Source: an uncultured Candidatus Peregrinibacteria bacterium
Lineage (GTDB): Bacteria; Patescibacteriota; Gracilibacteria; Peribacterales; Peribacteraceae
Direction of reading: 5' to 3'
Length of the DNA stretch: 64,000 nucleotides
Assembly: GCA_903825315.1 (NCBI GenBank)
Contig: CAIKAD010000003.1
Span: 11,053-75,052 of the forward strand
The notes under the pieces are model-generated. The model was given only the letters and a program-made list of their open reading frames with translations, made no database searches and was not told the origin of the DNA. This document shows positions 25-58,771 of the stretch, piece by piece. The number at the start of each line of letters is the position of its first letter. Within the stretch, counting starts at the first letter, position 1. The translations under genes and the position numbers were made by a program.

Positions 25-99
25 CAGGAATAACAGCAGTTCCTCCGCCTCTTCTGCATCCTCTCCATCATCTGCTTCCTTTACTTCTTCTGCAGAAGC
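25..99. repeat. partial low-complexity element (GCAGAAG-type arm) at window edge
   Basis: cctccgcctcttctgcatcctctccatcatctgcttcc...cttcttctgcagaag. It overlaps the rumA-like stop. Confidence 0.55.
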
Positions 100-1532
100 G
101 CCACCGTCTCAATATGCGCAGTATGCGGGAAGAGGTCGACGGGCTGGACCGTCCGCAACTCATATCCCGCCTTGAGAAACTCCGCCAAATCGCGCGCGAA
201 CGTAGATGTGTTGCACGAGACGTACACAATCTTATCGGGATTGTGGGCCACTACCGCTTCGCGCGCCGCGGGATGGAGACCGGGCCGCGGGGGATCGACC
301 ACAACAACAGAGAACTTGTATTTGCCGCCCGCCTTGAGTTGATGCTGCAGGACCTGCTCCGCCTTGCCCTTGTAGAAGCTTATATTGCCGATGCGGTTCT
401 TGCCGGCGCTCGTGAGCGCATCCTCAATGGCGGAGGGATGGCTTTCCACGCCCACTACTTTCTGGCAGAAACGAGCCAAGTATTGGCCAATCGTCCCCAT
501 ACCGCAGTACGCGTCGAGGACAGTGTCGCGCATCGTGAGTTCCGCAACATCGGCGATGGCGCGGTAGAGCTTTTCTGCACCAAGGGTATTGGTCTGGAAA
601 AAGGAAAAGGGAGAAATCTCAAAAGTGAGATCAAACAGGCGCTCGGTGATGGTGTTCTTGCCGTAGAGCGTGTGGACCTTGGGGAAGTCCGGCTTGTCGT
701 GAAGACCCATGTGCTCCACGAGCAGGAGGGATGCCAGTTGCGGGCGCCCAGCAAAGGAGCGGATGAACGTCTGGAAGAGAGGCTCCAGTTCCTTCTTCCT
801 CGCCTGCACGAGGAAACAGATCATCTGCTCACCCGTGTGTACGCCACGCCTGAGCAGCATCTGCCGCAACATGCCCTTCTGCGTCTTGGGATTATAGACC
901 GGCAGGTTCGTCTCCTGCATAAACCGCCGCACGGTGGAGAGGAGCATGGGGAGCTGCTCGTCGTAGAGATGGCACTCGGTGACGGGGAACACAGTGGACC
1001 ACTGGCCCGGCTTGTGCAGACCGATAGTAGGATTTTCGTCGAAGAAGATCCGGCGCCCGTTATTCTCCTCCGTCCGCATGGACTCATAACCGAACGAGAA
1101 CTCCATCTTGTTGCGGTAGTGGAACACCTGCGGGCTGGGGATGATCTTGAGGACGCGCCCCGGAAGGTTCTTACGCTCCTCTTCCCCGATAGGCGTGAGA
1201 TGAAGAAGCGTCTCGCGCACGATCTCCTCCTTATAAGCGATCTGCTTGTCGTACGGAATGTTCTGCCATACGCACCCACCGCAGTCGTGAAAATGGGGGC
1301 AGCGCGCGGAAATCTCCTCCTTGGCCTTGCGGACAACCTTCTTCACCTTGGCCTCGGCGTAAGAATCCTTGAGCTTGGTGATGACAATTTCCAGCATCTG
1401 GCCCGGTATGGAATCCGGTACAAAGACAGGAAGGGTGCCGACGTGGGTCATTCCGGAGCCGCCAAAGGTGAGCTTTTCTATGGTCACCTGGTGCGACTGT
1501 CCTGGAGTAACCGTCTGGGGGGGTGTTGACAT
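81..1532 (-). CDS. 23S rRNA (uracil-5-)-methyltransferase, RumA/RlmD family
   Basis: 483-aa ORF. Cys cluster CPHFHDCGGC typical of the RumA Fe-S site. SAM-MTase motifs VLDAYCGMGTIG, VYVSCN and FPHTAHIE. Confidence 0.85.
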   Translation of the reverse strand: MSTPPQTVTPGQSHQVTIEKLTFGGSGMTHVGTLPVFVPDSIPGQMLEIVITKLKDSYAEAKVKKVVRKAKEEISARCPHFHDCGGCVWQNIPYDKQIAYKEEIVRETLLHLTPIGEEERKNLPGRVLKIIPSPQVFHYRNKMEFSFGYESMRTEENNGRRIFFDENPTIGLHKPGQWSTVFPVTECHLYDEQLPMLLSTVRRFMQETNLPVYNPKTQKGMLRQMLLRRGVHTGEQMICFLVQARKKELEPLFQTFIRSFAGRPQLASLLLVEHMGLHDKPDFPKVHTLYGKNTITERLFDLTFEISPFSFFQTNTLGAEKLYRAIADVAELTMRDTVLDAYCGMGTIGQYLARFCQKVVGVESHPSAIEDALTSAGKNRIGNISFYKGKAEQVLQHQLKAGGKYKFSVVVVDPPRPGLHPAAREAVVAHNPDKIVYVSCNTSTFARDLAEFLKAGYELRTVQPVDLFPHTAHIETVALLQKK

Positions 1533-1574
1533 CTAACCTAAAATGTAGTAATAATATCACCTTTTTGCCCCGTC

Positions 1575-2423
1575 ATGAAAACCTCGTACCTCCTCCGTTT
1601 CTGGCTGATAACGATGCTTGCAACGGGAGCATTCCTGCCGCAGAGCGTAGCACAGAAGGCCCTCCCTGCAAGGGAAAACGGCCTCCAAATGGCAGCAGCG
1701 GGCACTTCGGAAAAGCCTATGAATACCGTCGTAACGGTGGTGACGGGCTCCTCTTCCTCCTCGAGCATTGCACCCCGTACGGCGGGCTCCGCCCTCCAGC
1801 CCGAGCAGGCAAAGGCTATAGAGGAGATCGCCACGTACCTCCCGACACAGTGCAAGGGCATCATCCGCAACCTCTACGTCCGTTACGACCACCCGGAGCA
1901 ACGGGGGTTGGGAGGTAAAACGACCGTCATCATCAGTGGGAACCTTCCTCTTACTGAATTCCGCGCAGTACTCGTTCACGAGGTACTGGGACACGCGATG
2001 GATCTGGGATGCCTCACCGGTACGCAGAGCAGCGGCCCCACCCCGTACAAGGACGGGGGAGACCAGATGTACCGGGACGACCCGAGCATCAACTTTTACC
2101 GGCTCTCCTGGGCCACGTCCAAAACGCGCCTCCCGGAGTCGCAGGACGGGGACTTTGTGAGCAGCTACGCGCGCACCGATGCCTTTGAAGACCTGGCCGA
2201 GACCGTCACCTTCTATATGTTCCAACGTGAGGAATTCCGTCGCATTGCCAAGCATAACGCTCTCCTCGCTGCCAAGCTCCGGTGGATCGAAACGGTCGCG
2301 TACCCATCGGCACAGAACTACGCGCTTGGCACCTACCAGTGGAACTCAACCGATATCCCATGGGACACAACCATGTTGCAGTATGTATGGTTGGGACCGG
2401 CGGTGGCGTCTGTTCAGGATTGA
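1575..2423 (+). CDS. secreted hypothetical protein with a single HExxH zinc-peptidase-like motif
   Basis: 282-aa ORF. Signal-like N-terminus MKTSYLLRFWLITMLATGAFLPQSVAQ. Motif VHEVLGH. No family recognised. Confidence 0.5.
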   Translation: MKTSYLLRFWLITMLATGAFLPQSVAQKALPARENGLQMAAAGTSEKPMNTVVTVVTGSSSSSSIAPRTAGSALQPEQAKAIEEIATYLPTQCKGIIRNLYVRYDHPEQRGLGGKTTVIISGNLPLTEFRAVLVHEVLGHAMDLGCLTGTQSSGPTPYKDGGDQMYRDDPSINFYRLSWATSKTRLPESQDGDFVSSYARTDAFEDLAETVTFYMFQREEFRRIAKHNALLAAKLRWIETVAYPSAQNYALGTYQWNSTDIPWDTTMLQYVWLGPAVASVQD

Positions 2424-2432
2424 GCAAGTGAT

Positions 2433-2516
2433 GAGTATTAGAGTATTCGAGCATGCGAATATCGGGATTCTAGACTGCCCCAATATTCCATTATTCCTAT
2501 ATTCCGATATTCTTTC
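2433..2516. repeat. low-complexity element (GAATATTC units)
   Basis: gagtattagagtattcgagcatgcgaatatcggg...ccaatattccattattcctatattccgatattc. Confidence 0.6.
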
Positions 2517-2519
2517 TCC

Positions 2520-5382: not shown

Positions 5383-7839
5383 ATGTCACGCTCCCGCCCT
5401 TTCTACTGGCCAGTTATCGCGGTTATCCTCGGCACTCTCATGGTGATCATCGCCCTTCCGCAGGAATGGAAAACTTGGGCGCCTGACATCATCAAACAAC
5501 CCGCGCTCCACCTGGGACTAGACCTGGTAGGGGGCACCCAGCTCGACTTCCGCATCTCCGAAGAGGAAATCCAGCAACAGTTGCGGCAGCTCGATAAGGA
5601 TATGGAGGACCTTAAGGCCAAGAATGCCCCCGCAGGCGACATGAATAAGCTGCAGGCGCAAAAGTTCAGCATCCAGACCCAACAGCAAAGTATCGTGGAA
5701 GCCATCCGCACCGTACTGGAACGCCGCATCAATGCGCTCGGCGTGAGCGAGGCAACCATCACACCGTCCTACATCGGCAACGAGAAGCACCTCCTCGTGG
5801 AATGCCCCGGCGTGGTGGATACGCAGGAATGCATCAAGGTGGTGGGCAAGACCATCCAGTTGGAATTCAAGGAGGAATTCACCCAACCGACCGAGTCTTT
5901 TAAGACCGACGTCCGCGCCAAGGCGGACGCCATGCTCCGACGCATCACCCAAAGCGGCTCCTCGCTCCAGAAGGAAGGACAGGACGTGGGTTCGCAACTG
6001 GGGATGGGTTATCAGGACCGGCTTCTGCTCTACAAGGACACCATCCCCAAAGGTCTCGAAAGCCTGTGGGGCAAGCAGCGGGGGAAAGTGTACAAGCTGG
6101 AGGGCAGTATCGATACCACGCAGCAGGACGAGAACGGCCAGCCGAAGCAGCAGACCATACCGGGCATCTTCCTTGCGGAAGTGACGCAGCCTCTCACCAT
6201 GACCGGACGGACGGTAACGGAAGCAGCCCGCGCCTTTGAGGTCCTGGGACAAACCGAAACGGGCGCCACCAACACCCCGCAGCAGAACGTCCCCATGAGC
6301 AGCATCAACCCCCTTATTGCCTCCGCGCTCACGTCCATGAAGGCAGGCGATCTTAAAGCCGTCTCGACGGGCACCGGCGCGGCGCACGTCCTCTTTTTGA
6401 GCGGCATCACAAAGGGAAAGGAGGAGATGGATCTGAGTCATATCCTCATCGCCTACAAGGGCGCCACAGAGGCGTCCGCTTCGGTCACGCGCACCAAGGA
6501 ACAGGCCCTTGCTCTCGCCAAGGAGATCAAAGCAAAGATCGATGGAGGAGCATCCTTCGCCGACCTCGCCAAGACACAGTCCGACGGCGCCACGTCCAAA
6601 GAAAAGGGCGGAAATCTGGGAGCAGTACAACGGGGAGAGTGGCCGCCGGCTTTTGACTCCGCCGCCTTCTCCCTTGCTTCCGGCAAGGTGAGCGATCCGG
6701 TGGAGACGCAGTACGGCTATCACATCATCCGCAGCAACGGCCCCAAGAAGACCAATCCCGACCTCGCCACATACAATGACCTTTCCCTCACGGGCCCCAA
6801 CGCCGAAGCCCGCGCCAACCTCCTCATCGGCCAGCTCAAGGGCGGCCAAGTACGCACACGGGAACAGGCTATGGAGGTTCGCACGGTGTTCTTCTCCCTT
6901 CTGCCTTCGGGCTGGAAGGACACCCCGCTCGACGGCAAGCACTTCCGCTCTGCCGCGGTCACCATGGATCCCACCACCAACATCCCCGTGGTGCAGATTC
7001 TCTTCGATGACGAGGGAGGCAAGCTGTTCCAGGAACTCACCAAGCGGAATATTCAGAAGCGCATCGCCATTTTCGTGGGCGGCCAGCTCGTCTCCGCACC
7101 TACCGTACAAACGGAAATTTCCGGCGGCTCCGCCGTGATTACGGGGAGCAACAGCTTTGACGAGGCGCGCCAGCTGGCACAGGACCTCAATACGGGCGCC
7201 ATTCCGGCCCCCATCTACCTCGTGGGGCAATACACGGTAGAAGCCACCCTCGGAGCAGCCGCACTCCTTACGTCGCTCCAAGCTGCCTTCATCGGCACGC
7301 TCATCCTCATGGTCTACATGCTCTTCATGTACCGCCTGCTGGGCCTCATGGCAGACATCGCGCTGGCCATGTACGCCATTATGCTCGCTGCCATCCTCAA
7401 GCTCCCGCTCCTCCTCTTCTCGTCCAACTACATCGTCCTCACGCTCGCCGGCATGGCGGGAATCATCCTGAGCATCGGTATGGCCGTGGACGCCAACGTG
7501 CTGGTATTTGAGCGCGTAAAAGAAGAACTGCGCAAAGGCAAGCTTGTGCGGACTGCTGTGGAAGCCAGCTTCAAGCATGCCTGGCCGGCTATCCGCGATA
7601 GCAACGTCTCCACGCTCATCACCTGCGGCATCCTCTTTATCATCGGAACGTCGATTATACGCGGGTTCGCCATCACGCTCAGTATGGGCGTGCTCCTCTC
7701 CATGCTCACGGCTGTTATCGTAACCCGCTGGCTCCTGCGCCATCTCGCCCGCACCCCGCTCGCCAATCGTCCCGAGCTCTTCTGCGGACAGAAGCTGAGT
7801 ACCGCAGAAGATGTCGGCATGGTGGAAACGTCTGTTTGA
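5383..7839 (+). CDS. secD: protein translocase subunit SecD with an inserted PpiC/parvulin-type PPIase domain
   Basis: N-terminal TM helix, then LDLVGGTQLDF and ERRINALGVSEATI. C-terminal six-TM SecD core (GMAVDANVLVFERVKEE). Residues ~349-453 (nt 6427-6741) form a complete parvulin motif set: SHILI...FADLAK..SDG.S...GGNLG...YGYHII. Confidence 0.9.
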   Translation: MSRSRPFYWPVIAVILGTLMVIIALPQEWKTWAPDIIKQPALHLGLDLVGGTQLDFRISEEEIQQQLRQLDKDMEDLKAKNAPAGDMNKLQAQKFSIQTQQQSIVEAIRTVLERRINALGVSEATITPSYIGNEKHLLVECPGVVDTQECIKVVGKTIQLEFKEEFTQPTESFKTDVRAKADAMLRRITQSGSSLQKEGQDVGSQLGMGYQDRLLLYKDTIPKGLESLWGKQRGKVYKLEGSIDTTQQDENGQPKQQTIPGIFLAEVTQPLTMTGRTVTEAARAFEVLGQTETGATNTPQQNVPMSSINPLIASALTSMKAGDLKAVSTGTGAAHVLFLSGITKGKEEMDLSHILIAYKGATEASASVTRTKEQALALAKEIKAKIDGGASFADLAKTQSDGATSKEKGGNLGAVQRGEWPPAFDSAAFSLASGKVSDPVETQYGYHIIRSNGPKKTNPDLATYNDLSLTGPNAEARANLLIGQLKGGQVRTREQAMEVRTVFFSLLPSGWKDTPLDGKHFRSAAVTMDPTTNIPVVQILFDDEGGKLFQELTKRNIQKRIAIFVGGQLVSAPTVQTEISGGSAVITGSNSFDEARQLAQDLNTGAIPAPIYLVGQYTVEATLGAAALLTSLQAAFIGTLILMVYMLFMYRLLGLMADIALAMYAIMLAAILKLPLLLFSSNYIVLTLAGMAGIILSIGMAVDANVLVFERVKEELRKGKLVRTAVEASFKHAWPAIRDSNVSTLITCGILFIIGTSIIRGFAITLSMGVLLSMLTAVIVTRWLLRHLARTPLANRPELFCGQKLSTAEDVGMVETSV

Positions 7840-7844: not shown

Positions 7845-7917
7845 GAAGAGTATTGAAATAAGGGAATAACAGAGTAACAGGCCCCCTGTTATTCCGTTAT
7901 TCTGTTACTCTGTTCCT
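7845..7917. repeat. long hairpin (AATAACAG units)
   Basis: The stem is centred on taacagg-ccc-cctgtta (7875-7891). It extends to about 24 bp with a few mismatches. Confidence 0.75.
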
Positions 7918-13176: not shown

Positions 13177-13179
13177 TTC

Positions 13180-14643: not shown

Positions 14644-14721
14644 GCGGGTGGGCTCACTGTAAAGGAATTCCTGAGGCTGTGAATCTCGGACAGAAATTTC
14701 CTGTTGCCATCCTTGATGTAT

Positions 14722-14800: not shown

Positions 14801-14808
14801 AAATGCAC

Positions 14809-16386: not shown

Positions 16387-16389
16387 GAG

Positions 16390-41358: not shown

Positions 41359-41361
41359 TCC

Positions 41362-47998: not shown

Positions 47999-48007
47999 AC
48001 AACTGAC

Positions 48008-48099
48008 GAATTGAAAATTGAAAATGAGAAATGGAAAATTCTGAAAGCTATTGAAATCCCGAATGACTTCCATCATTTTCAATTTTTCATTTCCCATTC
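48008..48099. repeat. low-complexity inverted-repeat element (TGAAAAT/GGAAAAT units)
   Basis: ttgaaaattgaaaatgagaaatggaaaat on the left, catcattttcaatttttcatttcccattc on the right. Confidence 0.7.
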
Positions 48100-49395: not shown

Positions 49396-50313
49396 GCTGC
49401 GCATTCCTTATACAGGCTGCCAACGATAGTGCCTCCCTTTTATGCAAGGACTTTCTATCCAAGAAAGCCAAGAGACACATCAATTGCTACGACGATAGGA
49501 AAGATCAACTACGAGAAACCCGCTTCGGGGGTCGCGAAATATCTTGATGATGTTATATGTATAATTGTCAATATGTCAAGTATGGATACGTACTGCTAAA
49601 CAAGAAACGCTTACGGAAGCGCAAATATCCCCCTTAGCATCAACATCCCACACAATACCTATGGGCAACGAAGAATACCGAGAGGTACAGAATGGCTGCG
49701 ACTGAATCTGATCTCCAAGGGAGAGCCCTCGACGCACACGAGGCGCGCCGAGGGCAGGGGGGGCGGAAGGAGCTAGTAGCCCCTTTTGTGGTGCATGTTC
49801 CGATGGCTCTTGTGATTCTCGGGATTTACCGGCACTCCGCATTTGGAGCACCGATTACCGGGAAAGTTGATGACCACTTTCGTGGTAACTACCACGGCAC
49901 CAGGTGAACCGCCATTCCTGTTCCTGTCGCGGCGCTGCCGCCGCTGAAAACCGTTTAACGATTTGTGGACGGACACGCAACAGCTCCTTTCGTATTACAA
50001 CAAGGGGGGAGAACAGGTTCATACGCAGAGAACATTGATGGCAAAGACCGCAGAAGGCTCTACATCTACCGTAGGAAAAAAACCTCACCACCGGAAAGTA
50101 CATTCGCTTGTAGATTTTAAAGATAATCTTTTATATCTGTCAATGGTGGCGATGTATCGATACACAGGTACGCCATGGGAAGAGGTCCATTCATTCTTTC
50201 GAAAGACCCCCTTCCATCATCAATGGCACGAAACTTTCTCTGCCTACGCACGTTTCCGCTGCATTGCTCCTGCCGGTAAGGGCAGGGAAGGCAAAGTGGT
50301 TGGAGAAAGGGGA

Positions 50314-51567
50314 TCAGGTGCCCTCCTGCCAGCTACTGAGGTACTTCTTCTGTTCCTCGGTGAGTTCGTCGATCGCAATACCCATCACCTCCAGCTGCGT
50401 CGTGGAAATGAAGTCATCGATCTCCCGCGGAAGCGTGATGACGGTGGGCTTCATGTTTCCCCTGTTCTTCACGAGATACTCACATGCGAGCACCTGGCCG
50501 CAGAAACTGAGGCTCATGACTTCGCTGGGATGCCCTTCTGCCGACGCGAGATTAACCAGCCGCCCTTCGCCGGCAACATACAGAACACGGCCGGACGGCA
50601 TCTTGTATTCGTCAAGGTAATGACGCACGCGACGCTTGGACTTGGCTGTTTTTTCCAGATCCACAAGATCAATTTCGCAGTCGAAATGGCCGGAGTTGGC
50701 GAGCACGGCCCCATCCTTCATCTTCTCCATGTGTTTCACAGTGAGCACGTGGATATCGCCTGTAACGGTGACAAAAATATCGCCCCAGCAGGCGGCATCT
50801 TCCATCTTCATCACCAAATGGCCGTCCATGGCGGCCTGCATCGCCTTGAAGGGATCAACTTCGGTCACTATCACCCGTGCCCCCAACCCCTTCGCGCGCA
50901 TCGATACGCCCTTGCCGCAACTCCCATACCCGGCAACGACGACTGTTTTTCCCGCCACGAGGATATTCGTGGAGCGGAGGATGCCGTCGAACGTGGACTG
51001 GCCCGTGCCGTAGTAGTTATCGAAGAGGTGCTTGGTCTTGTTGTCGTTCACCGCGATCATTGGGCACTTGAGCACGCCATCCCGCTCCATCGCACGCAAC
51101 CGGATAATGCCGGTAGTCGTCTCCTCGCACCCGCCGATCAGGCCGGACAACAGTTCCGGATGCTTGGTATGCAGGAGCGTGACAAGATCACACCCGTCAT
51201 CGATAGTAATGTGTGGCTTGGTCTTTAATACTTCCTCAAGGTACGTGTAGTAGTCCTCCTTCGATTCGCCTTTGTACGCCCACACCTGCACGTCCTTCTC
51301 CTCCGCAAGAGCGGCAGCCACATCATCCTGCGTGCTGAGGGGATTGCACCCGGTGATGGCCACCTTCGCCCCGCCTGCAACAAGAGTCTTGACCAGTATG
51401 CCTGTCTCCTTGGTCACGTGCAGCGCCATGCCGATGGTGAGCCCTTGGAAGGGCTTCTCTCTGGCAAAACGCTCACCAAGCTTGAGCAGCGCACCCATGC
51501 GCTTTTCGGCAATTTCGAGATTGAGGCGGCCTTGCGCCGCTAAAGAGGGATCTTTGACGGAAGACAT
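50314..51567 (-). CDS. ahcY: adenosylhomocysteinase
   Basis: 417-aa ORF with CNPLSTQDDVAAAL, GYGSCGKG and HFDCEID motifs. Confidence 0.95.
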   Translation of the reverse strand: MSSVKDPSLAAQGRLNLEIAEKRMGALLKLGERFAREKPFQGLTIGMALHVTKETGILVKTLVAGGAKVAITGCNPLSTQDDVAAALAEEKDVQVWAYKGESKEDYYTYLEEVLKTKPHITIDDGCDLVTLLHTKHPELLSGLIGGCEETTTGIIRLRAMERDGVLKCPMIAVNDNKTKHLFDNYYGTGQSTFDGILRSTNILVAGKTVVVAGYGSCGKGVSMRAKGLGARVIVTEVDPFKAMQAAMDGHLVMKMEDAACWGDIFVTVTGDIHVLTVKHMEKMKDGAVLANSGHFDCEIDLVDLEKTAKSKRRVRHYLDEYKMPSGRVLYVAGEGRLVNLASAEGHPSEVMSLSFCGQVLACEYLVKNRGNMKPTVITLPREIDDFISTTQLEVMGIAIDELTEEQKKYLSSWQEGT

Positions 51568-51578
51568 GGAACGAGTGT

Positions 51579-51670
51579 AATGGAAAATGAGAAATTGGAA
51601 ATTGAAAATGACAGAAACAACTCAAGAAACAATCATAACTTCCAAATTTTCCATTTTGCATTTTCAATGT
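51579..51670. repeat. low-complexity inverted-repeat element (GGAAAAT/TGAAAAT units)
   Basis: aatggaaaatgagaaattggaaattgaaaatga on the left, ccaaattttccattttgcattttcaatg on the right. Confidence 0.7.
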
Positions 51671-51705
51671 TCATGCGTCAACGCAACAAAGAATCAGACA
51701 ACTGA

Positions 51706-52653
51706 TCAGGGCAACGCAGGGAGCGCCTCCCCATACGCCGTCTCCGCACGGCTGAGGACATCATTCAAATCGAGCTTATCGAGAAGCGTCCCTTCCTGTT
51801 CCACGACAAAGGACGCAACCGAGGCGCCGAGCATACCGCATTGCTTCAAACCCCATTTGGCAGACATCCCCGTAAGGAAGCCTGCGCGGAACGCATCACC
51901 AGCCCCCGTGGGGTTCATGACCTTCTCGGGCTTGCATGCAGGCAACACGATCTGCCCCTTGGAATTGTAGATCGTAAAACCATCCTCCGCCTGCGTGATG
52001 ATGAGGAACGGCGCATGCTCCAGGAGTTGCTCGATACTGAACGATGTTCGCTTGGAAATCAGACTCCACTCGTACGCATTGGCGATGACGCCGGCAGACT
52101 TGTCGATGGCACGCACGAGCTCTTCTTCGGAAAGCGCCATCACTTGCTGACCAGGATCGAAAAGGTAGGGGACTGCGTACTGCTGGCACCATGCCACCGC
52201 CTGCACCATCACACGCGCATCGCGCGGACTGATGATACCCACGCCCACATCGTCGCGTTCCTCGGAAAGGTCAGGGAAACTCCCCGCCGCATCCGCGCCG
52301 GGATGGAAGAACGTAATCTGGTGTTCACCGGAGTCGGTGGCAACAATGGCCGTGGCTGTCACATGGGCCCTCTGCACTTCCACCCGGTTCGTGGCAATGC
52401 CCTTCTCCTCGAGCAAAGCCGTGTACGCACCACCGTCATTCCCTACCGTGCCTACGAGCAGAGGGTCTTGGTTGAGCAGCTTGAGGTTCCACGCAATATT
52501 TGCCCCCGTGCCGCCGTGGTGCCTGGCAAACCGACTCGTGACGAATGCCATGCTCAGTTCATCGAGATGCGCGGGATCGATGGCTTCCGGAAAGGAGCCG
52601 TCGTACTGGAGGAGGAGGTCGTAGGCGATGGAGCCAGATACTAAGATCTTCAT
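51706..52653 (-). CDS. PfkB-family ribokinase-like kinase (adenosine-kinase-like by context)
   Basis: MKILVSGSIAYD and GGTGANIAW. C-terminal NPTGAGDAFRAGFL is the PfkB signature. The ATG at 52653 is preferred over the ORF-track start inside the repeat. Confidence 0.75.
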   Translation of the reverse strand: MKILVSGSIAYDLLLQYDGSFPEAIDPAHLDELSMAFVTSRFARHHGGTGANIAWNLKLLNQDPLLVGTVGNDGGAYTALLEEKGIATNRVEVQRAHVTATAIVATDSGEHQITFFHPGADAAGSFPDLSEERDDVGVGIISPRDARVMVQAVAWCQQYAVPYLFDPGQQVMALSEEELVRAIDKSAGVIANAYEWSLISKRTSFSIEQLLEHAPFLIITQAEDGFTIYNSKGQIVLPACKPEKVMNPTGAGDAFRAGFLTGMSAKWGLKQCGMLGASVASFVVEQEGTLLDKLDLNDVLSRAETAYGEALPALP

Positions 52654-52662
52654 GCAACGGAG

Positions 52663-52691
52663 AGTGTGCCTGTTATTTGTGCGTCTGGCAA
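52663..52691 (-). promoter_or_regulatory. candidate promoter (kinase side)
   Basis: Minus strand: TTGCCA-17 nt-CACACT, then 9 nt to the ATG. The same boxes occur in cassette copy 2. Confidence 0.4.
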
Positions 52692-52820
52692 AGGATGCAA
52701 AGGTTGCAGAAGATGCAGAAGAGGCAGAGGAATGATGATACATCGCTTCGAAAGCAGGGTGATGACTATTCCTCTGCATCCTCTGCTACCCCTGCATCTT
52801 CTGTATCTTTCCTGTGGTCG

Positions 52821-52849
52821 CTGACAACCTCCCACACACCCGCTACACT
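52821..52849 (+). promoter_or_regulatory. candidate promoter (ugd side)
   Basis: CTGACA-17 nt-TACACT, then 6 nt to the ATG at 52856. The same boxes occur in cassette copy 2. Confidence 0.4.
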
Positions 52850-52855
52850 CACAGC

Positions 52856-54178
52856 ATGAAGATCGCCGTCGTCGGAACCGGCTACGTAGGATTAGTCAGC
52901 GCCGCTTGCTTTGCGGAACTGGGCCACACAGTCACCGGCGTGGATATCGACGAAAAGAAAATCGCCATCCTCAAGGGGGGCAAGAGCACGATCTATGAAC
53001 CGGAGCTGGAGGAGCTGATTCAAAGGGGGCTCCAGAGCGGACACCTCTCCTTTACGACGGACCTGCAGAGCGTATTGCCCAATGTGGAAATCGTCTTCTC
53101 CGCAGTAGCGACGCCACCGGGCGAGGGCTACAAGGCCGACCTGCGCGCCGTATTCACCGTGGCCGAGACCGTGGCAAAGAACGCAACGCGGGGTCTTCTC
53201 TTCGTGAACAAGTCCACCGTACCCGTGGGCACCGGACAGAAGTGTGAGGAAACCATCACGCAGATTCTCAAGGATCGTGGCGCGCCATTCTCCATCCCCG
53301 TCGTCAGCAACCCGGAATTTTTGCGGGAAGGACTCGCCGTTCCGGACACGCTCATGCCGGACCGGATCGTCGTCGGTATCAATGCGAACGAGAAAGCACG
53401 GGAAATGATGGAAGAACTCTACAGGCCCTTGACCCGTGTAGGGCGCCCCCTCCTCTTTATGAGCCGCGAGAGCGCGGAAATTGTGAAATACGCCAGTAAC
53501 TCCTTCCTCGCCACCAAGATCAGCTTCATCAACATGCTCACGGAATTCGCAGAAATGACGGGCGCCAACATCCGCCACATCGCCGCAGGCCTGGGGCTCG
53601 ATAACCGCATCGGACCCAAATTCCTCCATGCGGGCATCGGCTACGGCGGCAGCTGCTTCCCCAAGGACGTCAAAGCTCTTCTTCAGACCGCCAAGGAGTA
53701 CGGCGTTGCGTTCGACATTATCGAGGCGACTGACGCCATCAACACGCGCCAGCGCTTCCGCTTCTTCGACAAAGTGCTCAAGGCGCTTCCCAAGAAGGCG
53801 ACTGTCGCGCTGTGGGGATTGAGTTTTAAGCCACGGACGGACGACATGCGCGAAGCGCCGAGCCTCGACTTCATTCCGCTTCTCTTAAAAGCCGGCCACT
53901 CCGTCAACGCATTCGACCCCGCAGCGATCGAGAATACCAAAAAGTTCTTCCCGCGCGAGATCACCTACGCGTCATCTCCGATGGAAGCCGCGACCGGAGC
54001 CGATACTGTCGTGGTCCTGACGGAGTGGGACATGTTCCGGGGGCAGGACCTGAAGGAACTGAAGAAGGTCATGAAGGGAAAGAATTTGTTTGATGGACGG
54101 AATGTGTACGAGCCATCAGAAGTAAGAGAGGCAGGACTGACGTATCATGGAATTGGAATCGGGGGATCCGAATGCTAA
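52856..54178 (+). CDS. ugd: UDP-glucose 6-dehydrogenase
   Basis: MKIAVVGTGYVGLVSAACFAELGH and GGSCFPKD motifs. Confidence 0.9.
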   Translation: MKIAVVGTGYVGLVSAACFAELGHTVTGVDIDEKKIAILKGGKSTIYEPELEELIQRGLQSGHLSFTTDLQSVLPNVEIVFSAVATPPGEGYKADLRAVFTVAETVAKNATRGLLFVNKSTVPVGTGQKCEETITQILKDRGAPFSIPVVSNPEFLREGLAVPDTLMPDRIVVGINANEKAREMMEELYRPLTRVGRPLLFMSRESAEIVKYASNSFLATKISFINMLTEFAEMTGANIRHIAAGLGLDNRIGPKFLHAGIGYGGSCFPKDVKALLQTAKEYGVAFDIIEATDAINTRQRFRFFDKVLKALPKKATVALWGLSFKPRTDDMREAPSLDFIPLLLKAGHSVNAFDPAAIENTKKFFPREITYASSPMEAATGADTVVVLTEWDMFRGQDLKELKKVMKGKNLFDGRNVYEPSEVREAGLTYHGIGIGGSEC

Positions 54179-54262
54179 ATGCACAATTTGAAATACGAAA
54201 TAAGCCGAAGATTTAACTGACATTTTGCATTTTGCGTGTCTCATTTTCCATTTACTCATTCC
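54176..54262. repeat. low-complexity element (GAAAT/CATTTT units)
   Basis: caatttgaaatacgaaataag on the left, cattttgcattttgcgtgtctcattttccatttactcattcc on the right. Confidence 0.6.
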
Positions 54263-54289
54263 TCTCATAACAGGCACAATCTCAGACGT

Positions 54290-55237
54290 ATGAAAATTCT
54301 CCTCACTGGCGCGGCCGGCTTCATAGGCTTCCACACTGCGCAACAGCTTCTCGCCCGCGGCGACGAGGTGATAGGCCTCGATAACTTTTCCCCGTACTAC
54401 GATCCGAAATTGAAAGAGGCACGGGCGGCGCAGCTGGAAGGAAAGAATGGATTCCAGATGATCCGTGCGGACATTCTGGACCGGGACGCAGTAAGCAAGG
54501 CAATGAAGGGATGCGACCGGGTGTGCCATCTCGCCGCGCTCGCCGGCGTGCGCTACGCCTTTGACCATCCCGACGAGTACATCGACATCAACATCCGGGG
54601 ATTCTTTAATGTATTGGATGAAGCGCGCAAGCAGGAGATTGCGGGGATGACCTATGCCTCCTCGAGCTCAGTGTACGGCGGCAACACTAAAATGCCGCTC
54701 GCCGAGACGGACCGCACCGATAACCAGCTCTCACTCTACGGCATGAACAAGAAGGACAACGAGCTGATGGCGCACGCGTACCACTCGCTCTACGGCCTTC
54801 CGGTTACCGGACTCCGGTTCTTTACGGTGTACGGCCCGTGGGGGCGGCCGGACATGGCACTCTTCCTCTTTACGGACGCCATCCTCCACAACCGCACACT
54901 CCAGATCTACGGTCAGGGAAAGATGCAACGCGACTTCACGTTTGTGGACGACATCGTCTCCGGCATCGTCGCGTCTATCGACAAGAACTTTCCTGAGGAA
55001 GTCTTCAATCTGGGCTGCGGCCGCACAGAGGAGTTGATGGACTATGTCGCCGCCGTGGAGAAGGCTTGCGGCAGGGAAGGGAAGAAGGAGTTCCTCCCCA
55101 TGCAGCCGGGTGACGTGGTGCGCACGGAAGCGGACATTGCCAAGGCAAAGAAGATGCTCGGCTTTGACCCCAAAACGCAGATCAAGGAAGGCGTGCCACG
55201 GTTCGTCGAGTGGTATAGGAAATACTACGGACTCTAA
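54290..55237 (+). CDS. UDP-glucuronate 4-epimerase-like SDR
   Basis: MKILLTGAAGFIG and YGMNKKDNE (YxxxK). RFFTVYGPWGRPDMA is typical of the GAE/LpsL/Cap1J group. Confidence 0.8.
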   Translation: MKILLTGAAGFIGFHTAQQLLARGDEVIGLDNFSPYYDPKLKEARAAQLEGKNGFQMIRADILDRDAVSKAMKGCDRVCHLAALAGVRYAFDHPDEYIDINIRGFFNVLDEARKQEIAGMTYASSSSVYGGNTKMPLAETDRTDNQLSLYGMNKKDNELMAHAYHSLYGLPVTGLRFFTVYGPWGRPDMALFLFTDAILHNRTLQIYGQGKMQRDFTFVDDIVSGIVASIDKNFPEEVFNLGCGRTEELMDYVAAVEKACGREGKKEFLPMQPGDVVRTEADIAKAKKMLGFDPKTQIKEGVPRFVEWYRKYYGL

Positions 55238-55242
55238 AAATA

Positions 55243-55326
55243 GCCAATTGTCCAAAATCCCAATGACCAAAAACGGTCCGGGGGACGAAGTGTTTTGGTT
55301 GTTGAACAATTGGTCATTGGTCATTT
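55243..55326. repeat. hairpin element, CCAATGA/TTGGTCATT family, conserved-loop subtype (inverted orientation)
   Basis: ccaattgtccaaaatcccaatgaccaaaaacg GTCCGGGGGACGAAG tgttttggttgttgaacaattggtcattggtcatt. The right arm encodes the last codons of the GT-C gene. Confidence 0.75.
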
Positions 55327-56516
55327 TCCCTCACCCACACCTCCGTCGGAAGATTGGGCAGCGTGACCCAGCCATCCCGCTTCTTCATGTCGTCACACTG
55401 ATCCAGGCAGACCACGGCTTGCGCATTGGTGAGTAAGGAAGGATGGAACCTCAGGACAGGGAAGGAACTCTCGTACTGCCAGTCATGCCCGAATGATCCG
55501 GCGATAAGGACGGTGCCCGTCTTACCCTGGAGCGCAATCGACTGCATCACGGCGCGGGACGCACCAGGCTTAAGGGACGGCGGAAAAAGCCCAACGCAGA
55601 GGACGGTAATGAGCGCGACGGGGCCGAGGACGGAGACAGGACTACTCCATGCGCGCCGAAGAAAGAGGACCATCCCCGCAACTAAGAGCGGCGTGAAGAG
55701 GATGGCGTAGTACATCCGGAAGGAGACGTAGAGGAACGCCGCAACGAGAGCCAAGCTCAGGAACATCGCCCACTGGCGATCCAGAGCCATGCCCACAATG
55801 CCCACAATTCCGATGAGGATGCTCCCGCCCACGCACCACGCCTGAAAAAGGGAGAGAGCCTTGTCCATGGGCGTAAGGGACGTATTGAGCGCGCCTGCGT
55901 TGACAAAGCTGGCCAAAATCGCGGGTTCCGCAATGCCGAAGAGAAGTGCGAGCGGAAGCGGTGCGAGAACATACAACGCTTTCTGCCACCACGGGAAACG
56001 GAGCGGGAGGAAGAGCGCGACGACGATGGGAAAGTAGAGGACGGCCTGGTACGCAGTGAGGAGCGAGACAAGCCACAGAAGCCCCGCTCCAAACGCTTGC
56101 CACGGCCCCCAGTTCTCGGGATTGCGTCGCGCTTCAAAGAGCAGCGCGAGAAAAAGGAGACCCTCCAGCGCCGTAAGGGGTGCCATCATCACCGAGCCTG
56201 CTTGCAGCACCACCGCGGCACAGAGGAGCCAAGCCGCCATCGTGGTAACGCGCTGATCGCGGGAGAGTTCACGCGCCATCCACCACACAATCCACGCCGC
56301 CTGCACCACAAGCGTGGCAAAGATGACGCGCCACAGGAGTTCCTGGTACGGGAAGCGCGATGTGAGCGCGATGAGGGACCGCGCGAGCGGCGGATGCGGG
56401 TACGGAATATTGAGGAGGTACTTCGCCTCGTCTGTGCGGACTCCGCCGATGGCCTGCACCCACGCAAGGAGCAGCGCATACAACTCGAAAAGAATGGCGT
56501 ACATCAGCTTCCGCAT
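55314..56516 (-). CDS. GT-C-fold membrane glycosyltransferase (ArnT/PMT-like, GT39/GT83-type)
   Basis: 400-aa polytopic ORF. First-loop motif RTDEAKYLLNIPYPHPPL. Confidence 0.6.
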   Translation of the reverse strand: MRKLMYAILFELYALLLAWVQAIGGVRTDEAKYLLNIPYPHPPLARSLIALTSRFPYQELLWRVIFATLVVQAAWIVWWMARELSRDQRVTTMAAWLLCAAVVLQAGSVMMAPLTALEGLLFLALLFEARRNPENWGPWQAFGAGLLWLVSLLTAYQAVLYFPIVVALFLPLRFPWWQKALYVLAPLPLALLFGIAEPAILASFVNAGALNTSLTPMDKALSLFQAWCVGGSILIGIVGIVGMALDRQWAMFLSLALVAAFLYVSFRMYYAILFTPLLVAGMVLFLRRAWSSPVSVLGPVALITVLCVGLFPPSLKPGASRAVMQSIALQGKTGTVLIAGSFGHDWQYESSFPVLRFHPSLLTNAQAVVCLDQCDDMKKRDGWVTLPNLPTEVWVRENDQ

Positions 56517-56812
56517 GGGTGCAGTTCGGAAGTGGCAAACGTAAAGGCGAAGCAGGCGGGAGGATCGGGATTGCGGCGGTGTTCACGATGGAGGAACGCC
56601 AGACCATCGGTGGTCACTTCCCGGATTTCCATATCCGAGAGATTCCATCCCTGAGACGTGGAGACCTGCTGCAAGGCAACATTCGCCTTGTCCCGTACGG
56701 ATGCATCCAAGTACAGCGGACGTATCCGCCACGCACGCACCGCCTGCGGCCCCGCGAGAGCAAGGATCAGCACAAGGAAGAGGAGGGCCGGAACGCGGGA
56801 AGGACGATGCAT
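56504..56812 (-). CDS. small secreted protein
   Basis: The ATG at 56812 gives MHRPSRVPALLFLVLILALAGPQAVRA. It overlaps the upstream GT2 stop by 1 nt (TGATG) and the downstream GT-C start by 13 nt. Confidence 0.4.
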   Translation of the reverse strand: MHRPSRVPALLFLVLILALAGPQAVRAWRIRPLYLDASVRDKANVALQQVSTSQGWNLSDMEIREVTTDGLAFLHREHRRNPDPPACFAFTFATSELHPCGS

Positions 56813-57519
56813 CAGACTGACCGGGTGAAAATACGCCGCACGGCTGCGCCGAGGAGCGATGCCAGGAACTGCCATTGTACGCGCAGCGACAACTTGCTCG
56901 CTCCCGCCGTGCGCGTGCGGAACGTATACGGGACTTCCGCAGCCGGCGTACGCGCCGGGACGCGAAGGAGGATATCAAAAAGAATCTTGAACCCTTTGGG
57001 ATGCAGGGTTGGAGCAATAGCTTCAAAGACTTTTCGGTCCACCGCGAAGAAACCACTCATGGGATCTCTGACCTTCACGCGGCACAGCGCAATGGAAAGG
57101 CGCGTGGCCACGCGACTGAGCACATGGCGGCGCTCGTCCCACTCACCCACGCTGCCACCCGGAACGTAGCGCGAACCGACCGCGATGCCACTCTTCTCTT
57201 TCACGATCCGATACATCTCGGGGAGGATACGCAAGTCATGCTGGCCATCGGCATCGGCTGCGGCGAGCACATCACCACGCGCCACAGCAAAGCCCTCCAT
57301 CACCGCCGTCGAAAGCCCCCGCCGTCCCACGCGTCGGATCACCCGAACGCGCAGGTCGGTACCGGAGAGCCTTTCCGCCACCCGCCACGTGTGGTCCGGC
57401 GAATCATCATCCACCACAATAATCTCGTACGGCAGGTCCTTGAGAATCTCCGCCAATTCCGGAAGGACGCGCGGCAGGTTCTCAGCCTCGTTGTACGTGG
57501 GCAGGACTAGCGAAAGCAT
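56812..57519 (-). CDS. polyprenyl-phosphate glycosyltransferase (DPM1/Ppm1/ArnC-like GT2)
   Basis: MLSLVLPTYNEAENL, IIVVDDDSPD and DADGQHD motifs. Confidence 0.8.
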   Translation of the reverse strand: MLSLVLPTYNEAENLPRVLPELAEILKDLPYEIIVVDDDSPDHTWRVAERLSGTDLRVRVIRRVGRRGLSTAVMEGFAVARGDVLAAADADGQHDLRILPEMYRIVKEKSGIAVGSRYVPGGSVGEWDERRHVLSRVATRLSIALCRVKVRDPMSGFFAVDRKVFEAIAPTLHPKGFKILFDILLRVPARTPAAEVPYTFRTRTAGASKLSLRVQWQFLASLLGAAVRRIFTRSV

Positions 57520-57528
57520 ACTGTTGAT

Positions 57529-57558
57529 AGTGTAGCGGGTGGGGAGGGAGGTTGTCAG
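57529..57558 (-). promoter_or_regulatory. candidate promoter (GT2 side)
   Basis: Minus strand: CTGACA-18 nt-TACACT, then 9 nt to the ATG at 57519. Confidence 0.4.
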
Positions 57559-57696
57559 TGACCGCTGGAAAGATGCAGAAGATGCAGGGGTAGCAAAGGA
57601 TGCAGAGGAATGGTCATCACCCTGCTTCCGAAGCGATTTACCATCATTCCTCTGATTCTCCTGCATCTTCTGCATCTATTGATCCCCCTGCATCCT

Positions 57697-57725
57697 TTGC
57701 CAGATCCATCCTCCACAGGCACACT
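57697..57725 (+). promoter_or_regulatory. candidate promoter (SDR side)
   Basis: TTGCCA-17 nt-CACACT, then 8 nt to the ATG at 57734. Confidence 0.4.
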
Positions 57726-57733
57726 GTCCGTGC

Positions 57734-58651
57734 ATGAAAATCCTCGTGACAGGATCATCGGGAACCATTGGCACGCGCCTCTGCGAGACGCTCCTTGAGC
57801 ATGGGGACGAGGTAATCGGAATCGACTGGGTGGCCAACAAGTGGAACGAGAACGTGGAAGCGGTCACGCGCCACATTGATTTGCGGGACGAAGTAGAGGT
57901 GGCAAACCTCGACCTCCCCAAGGATATTGATGCCGTGGTGCACCTGGCCGCCAATGCCCGTGTGTACGAGCTCGTGGAACACCCGGACCGCGCCCGCGAC
58001 AACTTCGTGACGCTCTTCAACGCGCTGGAGATGGCGCGGACCACGGGGATCCCGCGTTTCCTCTTCGCTTCCTCACGCGAAGGATATGGGAACATCCAGG
58101 CAAAGCAGTACACGGAAGACCTCGTACGCGTGGAGAACTGCGAAAGCCCCTACACCGCGAGCAAGGTGGGCGGCGAAGCATTGGTGGAGGCCTATACGCG
58201 CTGCTACGGAATCGACCACGTGATCTTCCGCTTCAGTAATGTCTACGGAATGTACGATGACTCGGTGCGCGTGGTGCCACTCTTCATCCGCAAAGCACGC
58301 AAGAATGAGCCGCTCATGGTGTACGGCAAGGAGAAATGCCTCGACTTCACATACATCGACGATGCCATCGACGGCATCCTCAAAGCCCTGGATAACTTTG
58401 AGCACGCCAAGAACGGCACGTACAACGTCGCATACGGCGAAGGAACGACCATCGTTCACCTCGCAGAGCGCGTCAAGAAACTACTCGGAAGCTCCTCCCC
58501 GCTCGAAGTCGGTGTGCCGCGCACAGGGGAAGTGGTCCGTTACGTGGCAAACATCACCAAGGCCAAGGAAACCTTCGGCTACGAACCCCGGGTACCGTTT
58601 GAAGAGGGGATCGAGAAGGCGGTGGCGTGGTACGAGGAACATAAGGTCTGA
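57734..58651 (+). CDS. NAD-dependent epimerase/dehydratase (SDR)
   Basis: MKILVTGSSGTIG and YTASKVGGE (YxxxK). Confidence 0.75.
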   Translation: MKILVTGSSGTIGTRLCETLLEHGDEVIGIDWVANKWNENVEAVTRHIDLRDEVEVANLDLPKDIDAVVHLAANARVYELVEHPDRARDNFVTLFNALEMARTTGIPRFLFASSREGYGNIQAKQYTEDLVRVENCESPYTASKVGGEALVEAYTRCYGIDHVIFRFSNVYGMYDDSVRVVPLFIRKARKNEPLMVYGKEKCLDFTYIDDAIDGILKALDNFEHAKNGTYNVAYGEGTTIVHLAERVKKLLGSSSPLEVGVPRTGEVVRYVANITKAKETFGYEPRVPFEEGIEKAVAWYEEHKV

Positions 58652-58685
58652 GAAAGGCCATTGTGTATAGACATTTGTATATACA

Positions 58686-58771
58686 GAAAAGAATCATGAA
58701 TACAGAATCAAGAATCAAGATATTCATTATTCTTAATTCCTAATTCTTAATTCTTCTTATTCTCCTCGTGA
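58686..58771. repeat. low-complexity inverted-repeat element (AAGAATC units)
   Basis: gaatcatgaatacagaatcaagaatcaaga on the left, attcttaattcctaattcttaattcttcttattc on the right. It overlaps the 3' end of the FAD gene. Confidence 0.7.

Follow-up and report, generated by a model that had tools for sequence, protein, structure and literature searches.

The window analyzed here is a 64-kb stretch of contig CAIKAD010000003.1, from an uncultured bacterium, whose intergenic spacers carry AT-rich hairpin elements with arms built of short tandem repeats. The best matches of the GatB protein encoded in the window are Candidatus Peribacteraceae/Peregrinibacteria proteins (100%, then 87% and 81% identity), and since the window proteins match Peribacteraceae, the host is placed by these matches in Candidatus Peribacteraceae, within the Candidate Phyla Radiation (CPR). 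The gene map of the window, which has a G+C content of 57%, was made with a self-trained codon-usage caller and is in agreement with the public annotation of genes on this contig. Pfam scans of 40 window proteins identified ordinary housekeeping and envelope-sugar genes, with no transposase and no Y1 (RAYT) domain among them, and one tRNA-Ser was the sole Rfam or ARAGORN match in the window.

Tandem-repeat hairpins in the intergenic spacers

An element typically consists of a mostly purine-rich array of about three to six degenerate units of 7, 8, or 9 nt, a center of about 30 nt, and a reverse-complement array (Table 1). Read on either strand, the purine-rich array usually leads. The arms are 20 to 40 nt long, have a G+C content of 0.27 to 0.5, and are 72 to 85% paired, with no T-run; a repeat finder delimited arms of 30 to 43 nt with 72 to 90% complementarity. 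A typical window element spans 70 to 120 nt, and all elements fall between 70 and 215 nt and are noncoding. A first-pass annotation of the window had described elements with a variable unit and a conserved architecture, and this description was borne out: the listed sequences are present and AT-rich (G+C of 0.27 to 0.53, versus 0.57 for the window), arm periodicities of 7, 8, or 9 nt were found, and an all-versus-all BLASTN comparison of 50 window spacers recovered the unit families that it had named. There are at least seven unit types within the 64 kb, most of them without G-tracts, and within the window the families have 2 to 5 copies with 67 to 88% identity. The statement that most spacers carry the feature was an overstatement, since it is present in approximately 21 of the 43 spacers of 40 to 300 nt, of which 13 passed a strict hairpin test.

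Table 1. Repeat elements and candidate elements in the window. z, score of the stem against shuffles; RNA, fold energy and its z score against dinucleotide shuffles; WC, Watson-Crick.
Positions	Feature	Support	Context
25-99	Right (pyrimidine) arm of a GATGCAG-family element clipped by the window start	BLASTN 87% over 39 nt to 13137-13175, 84% to 52690-52732	Overlaps stop of tRNA U5-methyltransferase gene 81-1532(-)
2433-2516	GAATATTC 8-nt unit hairpin	8-nt array; arm-wise z 2.4; RNA -22.5 kcal/mol, z -3.4, 0/200 shuffles as good	Right arm terminates in -10-like box GATATTCT, 7 nt upstream of GTG at 2520
7845-7917	AATAACAG 8-nt unit hairpin	21/26 WC pairs, z 5.8; RNA -27 kcal/mol, z -5.5	secDF/folB spacer (tandem genes); inner stem scored terminator-like on both strands
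13066-13177	GATGCAGAA 9-nt unit hairpin	32/39 WC pairs, z 7.6; RNA -44.8 kcal/mol, z -5.4	DUF4015 gene stop to thyA promoter; arms pair equally well in several registers offset by 9 nt
14713-14801	GGAATACT/GAATATTC 8-nt unit hairpin	z 4.8-5.4; RNA z -3.1	
16390-16483	AATAACAG 8-nt unit hairpin	26/35 WC pairs, z 8.0; RNA -30.4 kcal/mol, z -5.4	Divergent HhH-GPD/RNase T spacer; left arm adjoins likely HhH-GPD start at 16386
22821-22892	AAGAATC 7-nt unit hairpin	z 3.6-6.0; RNA z -1.7	DUF5667 gene stop to EF-P promoter
28931-29043	GGAATnT/AAGAATC-type 7-nt unit hairpin	30/39 WC pairs, z 5.5-6.9; RNA z -2.5	
31752-31846	Family B (CAATGATCA) copy 1	nhmmer E 6e-27; arm z 5.1	Divergent spacer; center conserved and asymmetric, CAAAACGCTTCGT..CCGGGA.CGTTTTG
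32285-32362	Family B diverged copy, weak hairpin	nhmmer E 2e-7; arm z 1.9-3.1; RNA z -2.6	Convergent spacer
33159-33235	Roughly nine pyrimidine-rich 8-nt units (nATAyTCy) in a one-sided array, no complementary arm	Period-8 array; hairpin z 0.1-2.4	Directly precedes GTG at 33240; units like -10 box
38108-38214	Family B copy 2	nhmmer E 1.5e-24; 78% over 87 nt to 31759-31845; arm z 4.3-4.5; RNA z -1.2	Divergent spacer
39206-39310	AAGAATC 7-nt unit hairpin	28/33 WC pairs, z 9.7; RNA -30.8 kcal/mol, z -4.8	Overlaps GT2 gene stop
41271-41361	Family B diverged copy (TTGGTCA 7-nt units)	nhmmer E 6e-9; z 5.0-7.3; RNA z -3.5	
41618-41645	Listed in the first-pass annotation, not supported as an element	Best stem of the spacer z 1.5; no array	
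42342-42425	Mostly one-sided 9-nt array (CCGAGGAAT type)	Period-9 array; hairpin z 0.6-2.2; RNA z -1.2	Flanked by infC/rpmI; 8 nt past infC stop, sense (-) strand
44776-44898	GATGCAG-family hairpin	z 3.6; RNA -42.1 kcal/mol, z -3.7; 70% over 107 nt to 13069-13175	Divergent spacer upstream of prfA-like RF-1
48008-48103	TTGAAAAT 7-nt unit hairpin	z 5.4-5.8; RNA z -2.6	Occupies whole convergent spacer
51565-51675	TGGAAAAT 7-nt unit hairpin	z 5.3-7.9; RNA z only -0.8; 73% over 97 nt to 48004-48098	
52645-52860	Entire spacer (approximately 215 nt), with GATGCAG hairpin 52689-52812 between two -10 boxes	Core RNA -52.9 kcal/mol, z -5.5; arm z 6.4-9.9	Divergent spacer
54170-54264	Weak ATTTTGC/ATTTTCC element, pyrimidine array alone clear	z 1.7-2.6; RNA z -0.7	
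55237-55333	Family B copy 3, in opposite orientation to copy 1	nhmmer E 4e-26, minus strand; arm z 3.2-4.6; RNA z -1.9	Convergent spacer
57515-57745	215-nt spacer cassette again, in inverted orientation	Arm z 8.5; alignment to 52645-52860, 83% mean column identity	
58686-58771	AAGAATC/TAATTCT 7-nt unit hairpin	z 3.6-3.7; RNA z -1.15	Occupies whole convergent spacer

Hairpin signal relative to shuffled controls

Purine-rich and pyrimidine-rich halves pair partly through composition alone. Therefore, we used an arm-wise test, in which Watson-Crick-only stem alignments were compared with shuffles that keep the composition of each half. The test covered 22 listed loci (the window-clipped 25-99 and 41618-41645 were omitted) and gave z scores of 1.7 to 9.7, with a z of at least 3.5 at 16 loci, while six failed. 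Among those with a z below 3.5 are the loci beginning at 2433, 32286, 33160, 42332, and 54176; of these, 33160 and 42332 are one-sided arrays, and 32286-32362 and 54176-54262 were weak on both the fold and the arm-wise tests. The first-pass list of two-armed elements is thus borne out at 16 of the 22 loci, with five being weak or one-sided, and 41618-41645 is unsupported.

RNA folding of 20 elements was compared with 200 dinucleotide shuffles per element. Each of the 20 folded into a single end-to-end hairpin, with energies of -11 to -53 kcal/mol. The z scores ranged from -0.7 to -5.5 and were -3 or lower in 10 elements; seven elements were unmatched by any of their shuffles, and seven were weak (|z| < 2). 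When whole spacers were folded together with their coding flanks, the energy excess was modest, with a mean z of -1.07 versus +0.03 for coding sequence (CDS) controls. In 50 kb of Escherichia coli DNA analyzed with the same pipeline, 6 hairpins were found in 25 spacers, none with periodic arms. For most loci, real complementarity thus exceeded that of shuffled sequences in the arm-wise and fold tests.

Occurrence across Peribacteria

Eighty Peribacteria/Peregrinibacteria loci around gatB (L003 to L082) were retrieved, after the contigs of two relatives (L001 and L002). The hairpin survey set comprised 734 spacers from 72 Peribacteria loci, and the array survey set comprised 842 spacers, with 754 CDS segments as the control. 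A significant hairpin was present in 144 of the 734 spacers, and 82 of the 144 had periodic arms. The elements occur in approximately 50 of the 72 loci and so are not confined to the window; their load varies by genome, from none in some to half of the spacers in others. Genomes of 43 to 65% G+C show the identical design with wholly different units.

The 842 spacers contained 236 tandem arrays versus 22 in the 754 CDS segments, an enrichment of approximately 10-fold, with periods of 7 nt (127 arrays), 8 nt (48 arrays), and 9 nt (40 arrays). Where arrays of the same unit were paired within one spacer, they were inverted in 25 cases and direct in none, with a median gap of 32 nt. Another 41 arrays have a significant complementary partner, and about 60% of arrays are solitary, without one. 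The purine arm came first in 50 cases, the order was reversed in 11, and 21 were neutral; the polarity described in the first-pass annotation, purine units on the left and their complement on the right, is thus a strong bias (50:11) and not a rule.

By this survey of sequences, the elements are a lineage-wide feature typical of the class Peribacteria. A literature search returned no description of them for this phylum, and the Ca. Peribacter genome paper leaves intergenic repeats unmentioned (PMC4736985). They are real and had not been reported before, and they represent a variant of a type of bacterial intergenic repeat that is known but unexplained.

Among the relatives, assembly gaps (runs of N) lie inside long tandem arrays, for example of (GAGTTATG)n, at L001/L003 3746-4111 and L008 11518-11732. 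Arrays can lengthen enough to break short-read assemblies of metagenome-assembled genomes (MAGs).

Gene context was also surveyed. Lineage-wide, 35% of convergent spacers had a hairpin of any kind, compared with 21% of tandem and 9% of divergent ones; for periodic hairpins, the shares were 11%, 13%, and 5%, respectively. The window contrasts with this depletion, with approximately 5 of 8 convergent, 9 of 27 tandem, and 6 to 7 of 9 divergent spacers occupied. The claim that elements occur in all gene contexts is supported by these counts. Orthologous spacers did not reveal drifted terminators restricted to convergent pairs. The further claim that they are not simply terminators needs a qualification: the elements abut stop codons and are lineage-wide 2 to 3 times rarer in divergent spacers, so that a link to gene 3' ends may exist.

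Position relative to stop codons, promoters, and start codons

Periodic hairpins lie a median of 1 nt from stop codons (interquartile range, -5 to 11) and a median of 34 nt from start codons. In the window, a -10-like box, (t)GCTAnnCT, ends 6 to 9 nt upstream of start codons, e.g., at 3403, 10140, 12093-13013(-), 16541, 25683-27503(-), and 48098-49069(-). In loci L003 to L082, TAnnnT ends exactly 6 nt upstream of starts in 146 cases, against a per-position background of about 15. A -10 box so close to the start implies that Peribacteria mRNAs would be leaderless or near-leaderless, a reading that fits the classification of Ca. P. riflensis as Shine-Dalgarno scarce (PMC10783764). The order in tandem spacers is stop codon, element, promoter, start codon, and the elements occupy the sole stretch of the spacer that is free to vary, from the stop codon to the next promoter.

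In spacers without an element, the sequence before starts is mildly pyrimidine-rich (0.42), and that after stops is close to neutral (0.48). Arrays that adjoin starts are pyrimidine-rich on the sense strand, solitary or paired alike, and in several cases a pyrimidine arm is made up of -10-like units leading directly into the actual -10 box. These observations suggest that the pyrimidine array may be the primary part of an element, from which fold-back copying would have given the purine arm. A relation between downstream promoter motifs and element presence was sought, for which the start-codon calls were too imprecise.

The longest open reading frames (ORFs) at 15730-16512(-), 22196-22843(-), 33120-33983(+), 51706-52779(-), and 56812-57675(-) have starts that run through hairpin arms, some of them also in the public annotation; the relatives and the position of the -10 box indicate that the true N termini are shorter. 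Of the first-pass observation that arms enter the last or first codons of genes, the overlap with stop codons is real, and the overlap with first codons is mostly an artifact of over-long ORF calls, as for EF-P and HhH-GPD, whose relatives have shorter N termini. In addition, the 9-nt purine arrays found right after stops [13137-13177(-) and 42370-42412(-) in the window, L001 11429-11470, and L002 11465-11525] would encode, in one reading frame, low-complexity acidic peptides such as KEAEEAEDAEDAEE, and in L002 part of a 9-nt purine array falls within a longer GatB ORF. Some 9-nt arrays may shift into and out of C-terminal coding tails. A coding explanation of the elements, with the 9-nt arrays as acidic peptide tails, was rejected because 7- and 8-nt periods predominate.

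Turnover between related genomes

Orthologous spacers preserve the architecture but carry different units in different genomes. In the thyA/DUF4015 spacer, the unit is GATGCAGAA in the window, AAGCACC in L001, and GAGGAAACC in L002, and the divergent HhH-GPD/RNase T spacer has an element in the window, a different one (TTGAAAAT) in L001, and none in L002. Two spacers are recurrently occupied, with other units (Def|RNaseT in 21 of 59 and EFP|DUF5667 in 22 of 57), and the operon-internal Sigma|DUF5667 spacer had no element in any of 58. The 127 heptamer arrays contain 91 distinct heptamers, and 6-mers recurred among their units no more often than among shuffled units. A limited unit repertoire common to the genomes, as expected for sequence-specific binders, was rejected on the basis of this recurrence, and CsrA (GGA) or G-quadruplex motifs would suit at most one unit family. 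Single-linkage clustering of the units was uninformative. We infer that the unit sequence carries no specific information.

Two pairs of sister genomes, L012/L013 (91% identical) and L059/L060 (94% identical), differ by the presence or absence of elements or by their complete replacement, even with reversed polarity, and their element-free neighboring spacers align well. Filled and empty sites in these pairs differ by replacement, not by clean insertion; in one case, 15 nt at the empty site resemble the center of the sister genome's element. Perfect arrays, together with assembly gaps within arrays, suggest that slippage is ongoing among the relatives. The similarity of units between arms (0.762) is on a par with that within an arm (0.766), so the arms share one pool of unit variants and their pairing is not register specific. 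Strain-level polymorphism was also sought, and the only other assembly containing the DNA was 100% identical.

A classical bidirectional terminator at approximately L012 4680-4715, and at the aligned positions of L013 and L028, keeps its A-tract and T-tract and has a wholly different G+C-rich stem in each of these genomes, which are 85 to 91% identical. Replacement of whole stems is thus not limited to tandem-repeat hairpins.

Multiple copies within a genome

One family of the window, family B, has three 95-nt copies (31752-31846, 38108-38199, and 55237-55333, the third inverted) and two more diverged copies. The three 95-nt copies align end to end, the nonpalindromic center included. No convincing copy of family B was found in the relatives, and its core pattern gave no hits among metagenome contigs. 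Likewise, a divergent spacer of 215 nt occurs twice, in inverted orientation, at 52645-52860 and 57515-57745 (83 to 88% identity). This cassette comprises the hairpin, both -10 boxes, and the first 3 to 4 codons (ATGAAGATC), and it is flanked by sugar-metabolism genes, a pfkB kinase and a UDP-glucose dehydrogenase at one site versus a glycosyltransferase-like gene and an NAD-epimerase at the other. The pfkB kinase and the epimerase have no homology beyond MKILVxGS. Segmental duplication was rejected as the origin of the 52.6/57.5-kb pair because the flanking genes are not paralogous.

Among the relatives, L013 and L060 each have several TAGCTTCAT-type copies that are missing from their close sisters. 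Sharing of units within a genome was twice that between genomes (P = 0.003). No target duplications were found flanking the three family B copies or at the L012/L013 and L059/L060 sites.

Comparison with known intergenic repeats and terminators

The first-pass annotation knew of no described family with this design, which is too strong a statement. The closest published analogue is the inverted GGGAATC heptamer arrays of Xanthomonas. These arrays (GGGGAYT in Nostoc) typically have about 4 copies, are approximately 90% intergenic, and have no known function (Rehm et al. 2015, PMC4692102). In 70 to 75 cases per Xanthomonas genome, two arrays on opposite strands face each other ("tandemly inverted"); the purine/G-rich array lies at most 50 nt after stops on the sense strand and antisense upstream of starts, and arrays are underrepresented between divergent genes (PMC4692102). 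Each genome has one G-rich unit, interpreted as a G-quadruplex former, and 83% of arrays are conserved in position between two species (PMC4692102). The Peribacteria elements share with these the enrichment of tandem arrays in spacers, with 7 nt as the commonest period, and the facing of same-unit arrays on opposite strands. They share also the purine array on the sense strand after stops, the pyrimidine array before starts, and the depletion in divergent spacers, although the depletion fails inside the window. In contrast, Peribacteria have no single conserved G-rich unit capable of forming a G-quadruplex but many, mostly AT-rich units, 8- and 9-nt periods are also common, and elements are replaced between genomes that are just 6 to 9% diverged.

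Cyanobacterial short tandemly repeated repetitive sequences (STRR) are short tandem heptamer arrays, restricted to noncoding DNA, present genome-wide, and typical of their lineage. The TAACTGA intergenic repeats of Beggiatoaceae form 169 direct sets and one indirect set (PMC4679880). Both resemble the Peribacteria elements as genome-wide, lineage-typical tandem heptamers in noncoding DNA, but they are built from few fixed units per genome and are almost always direct, without a complementary partner. A cyanobacterial origin of the window, considered because of STRR and HIP1, was rejected: HIP1 sites are absent from it, and its proteins point to Peribacteraceae.

REP, BIME, and REPIN sequences are extragenic imperfect palindromes that form 70- to 110-nt hairpins at gene 3' ends, in several species-specific families and without target duplication. 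The Peribacteria elements are also extragenic hairpins at gene 3' ends, with several families per genome and no target duplication; however, REP arms are not tandem repeats, and a REP/REPIN family runs to tens or hundreds of nearly identical copies with a conserved recognition tetranucleotide and has a cognate RAYT gene. None of these features was seen in the 64 kb of the window. Eukaryotic Foldback (FB) elements have inverted terminal arms of short tandem subrepeats, variable in number, around a variable center. This likeness to the Peribacteria arms is one of design, with no homology implied. FB elements are eukaryotic, span hundreds to thousands of base pairs, and have 9-bp target duplications and in some cases an encoded transposase, whereas neither transposase-encoding copies nor target duplications of the FB type were found among the Peribacteria elements.

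With bidirectional intrinsic terminators, the elements share a position right after stops, a hairpin on both strands, a polarity that is A/purine-rich at the 5' side and T/pyrimidine-rich at the 3' side, and a stem whose sequence evolves freely while the architecture stays. Unlike intrinsic terminators, they lack a short G+C-rich stem, a 3- to 8-nt loop, a U-tract, and a G·U signature, and they are present in divergent spacers.

Other features of the window and the related loci

A DNA polymerase of family X (Pol beta-like) is encoded at 48098-49069(-) of the window; in a CPR genome of small size, it may be relevant to gap-filling or slippage-prone repair. At 5383-7839(+) lies a gene for a SecD/SecF-type translocase subunit with a PPIC-type peptidyl-prolyl isomerase (rotamase) domain inserted periplasmically, an architecture also present in L002. 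The 909 nt at 49405-50313 are without a gene call or an Rfam match and contain two sigma-70-like promoters on the minus strand, at 50143-50114 and 49579-49550. At L012 11922-12705, and also in L013 and L028, approximately 700 nt downstream of gatB are nearly invariant in genomes that are otherwise 85 to 91% identical; the region has no credible ORF and no Rfam match and may be an undescribed structured RNA.

Discussion

The observation that opened this study is partly confirmed, being real but overstated, and the interpretation given with it is partly supported. The reading that we prefer, with a probability of roughly 0.42, is that the elements are fast-turnover, noncoding, foldback-type tandem-repeat hairpins made by slippage and copying, which probably act as a two-way barrier or 3'-end hairpin. 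Replication slippage would create and resize the arrays, fold-back (intrastrand template-switch) copying would generate the complementary arm, copying between spacers would spread small genome-specific families, and hairpin-prone deletion would remove elements. No dedicated transposase is evident. Elements would be tolerated only between the stop codon and the next promoter, and in single-stranded DNA or RNA of either strand an element would fold into a long AT-rich hairpin. A barrier or 3'-end effect between independently promoted genes is plausible because of where the elements lie, because an operon-internal spacer has none, and because canonical terminators are lacking; it is weakened by a null wobble test and by the occupied divergent spacers.

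Several points weigh against this reading. Slippage and template switching are deduced from sequence patterns alone, and sampling covered a 64-kb part of this genome and, for its relatives, a single syntenic region around gatB. On the sense strand, G·U mismatches were not in excess of A·C mismatches (135:129, 39:46, and 5:4 at the consensus level), so that selection on RNA pairing was undetectable; nonperiodic hairpins were also null, and the test therefore has low power. The AT-rich imperfect stems and large centers are unlike known intrinsic terminators, and divergent spacers of the window, which contain no gene 3' end, are occupied at least as often as others. Finally, elements that are missing from a 94%-identical sister already carry degenerate units, which suggests that they were copied in or lost and not born perfect in place. 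A mobility mechanism that escaped identification may exist.

An alternative that we consider unlikely gives the elements a dedicated role, as bidirectional terminators that need no factor or as stabilizers of mRNA 3' ends; selection would keep a post-stop hairpin, and the tandem units would be a fast means of lengthening its stem. The abutment on stops with the promoter left free, the rarity of hairpins in divergent relative to convergent and tandem spacers, and the purine-first polarity, which fits the A-tract/stem/T-tract layout, all agree with such a role. The empty operon-internal Sigma|DUF5667 spacer also does, since its neighboring spacers are occupied in 36 to 39% of genomes. Canonical terminator-like sites were not above shuffles in the window (17 versus 18.1 and 19 versus 20.3 expected); the relatives do carry classical A-tract/GC-stem/T-tract terminators, and these likewise swap stems while keeping their flanks. 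However, the elements show no G·U signature on the sense strand and no U-tract, and their stems are AT-rich and imperfect, with large centers. This alternative also fits poorly with the 6 to 7 of 9 divergent spacers occupied in the window, with the many orthologous spacers that have no hairpin at all, and with the 61% of arrays that have no complementary partner.

It is rather improbable that the elements are nonautonomous mobile elements, like MITEs (miniature inverted-repeat transposable elements) or REPINs, moved by an enzyme encoded elsewhere, with the units as subterminal binding sites as in Tn7, Mu, and eukaryotic Foldback. Tiny families and very diverse units mean that this explanation needs hundreds of families, with matching enzymes, in what are likely small genomes; the sole Peribacteria species with published complete genomes has approximately 1.25 Mb (PMC4736985). 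There is no target-site duplication, no clean empty site, no transposase or Y1 domain in the scanned window proteins, and no match to the family B core in metagenome contigs, and solitary arrays and perfect young arrays suggest local slippage. The best case for mobility is family B, whose 95-nt copies have sharp ends and a conserved asymmetric center and lie in unrelated spacers in both orientations. The TAGCTTCAT-type copies at two L013 sites, missing at both in L012, and one L060 copy missing in L059 point the same way, as do the degenerate units of such "new" copies, which imply copying in, not birth in place, and the REP-like extragenic location at gene ends.

We regard as improbable a further explanation, that the elements are DNA-level signals, whether promoter-like (-10/UP) boxes, sites for regulators or nucleoid proteins, or cruciform or R-loop tracts that tune adjacent promoters, possibly in a phase-variable manner through unit copy number. 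Start-proximal pyrimidine arms are often composed of -10-like units (nATAyTCy), and at 2479-2519, 33159-33239, and 16386-16425 and at Def in L013 and L028 no candidate -10 box other than the last unit exists; start-adjacent arrays, both the solitary and the paired ones, are pyrimidine-rich on the sense strand. Yet convergent spacers, which have no promoter, are occupied as often as tandem ones, the units are too diverse for few regulators, centers of about 30 nt disfavor cruciform extrusion, and periods of 7 to 9 nt do not fit the helical repeat. The reuse of a promoter-plus-hairpin cassette at two sugar-metabolism gene pairs and the missing G·U signal would be consistent with action at the DNA level. 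The idea that AT-rich, purine/pyrimidine-skewed spacers merely seem complementary through chance draws on the modest whole-spacer excess, the six loci that failed the arm-wise test, and the pyrimidine richness of element-free spacers upstream of starts, but it is very improbable, having been largely refuted already by the 16 loci that beat composition-preserving shuffles, the array enrichment over CDS, the exclusively inverted same-unit pairs, the E. coli control, and a purine arm that is 0.7 to 0.85 purine, far above the 0.48 background after stops.

An extension of the slippage-and-copying reading, which is speculative and on balance unlikely, is that Peribacteria may run a "hairpin-writing" mutational regime. 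Through slippage and fold-back template switching, hairpins would be written, copied, and erased all the time in each free spacer, and the elements would form a transposase-free prokaryotic foldback class that the cell co-opts as its chief barriers to transcription, in both directions, between leaderless genes. Such a regime could be favored by a reduced set of repair functions, and a PolX-family polymerase is encoded in the window.

CPR genomes are tiny and streamlined, yet roughly half of the scarce noncoding DNA of the window goes to hairpins that are apparently undescribed for this lineage. In practice, the elements break MAG assemblies and inflate ORF calls at gene starts, and they could serve as strain markers. 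They generalize the inverted heptamer arrays of Xanthomonas and indicate that the architecture needs no sequence-specific (G-quadruplex) explanation. Should the elements prove to be terminators or insulators, they would explain how an uncultured lineage that is poor in Shine-Dalgarno sites, apparently leaderless, and without classical terminators sets the limits of its transcription units. Should they instead be a mutational by-product, they would reveal an unusually active slippage and template-switch regime, in which regulatory-looking structure appears and vanishes within a few percent of divergence.

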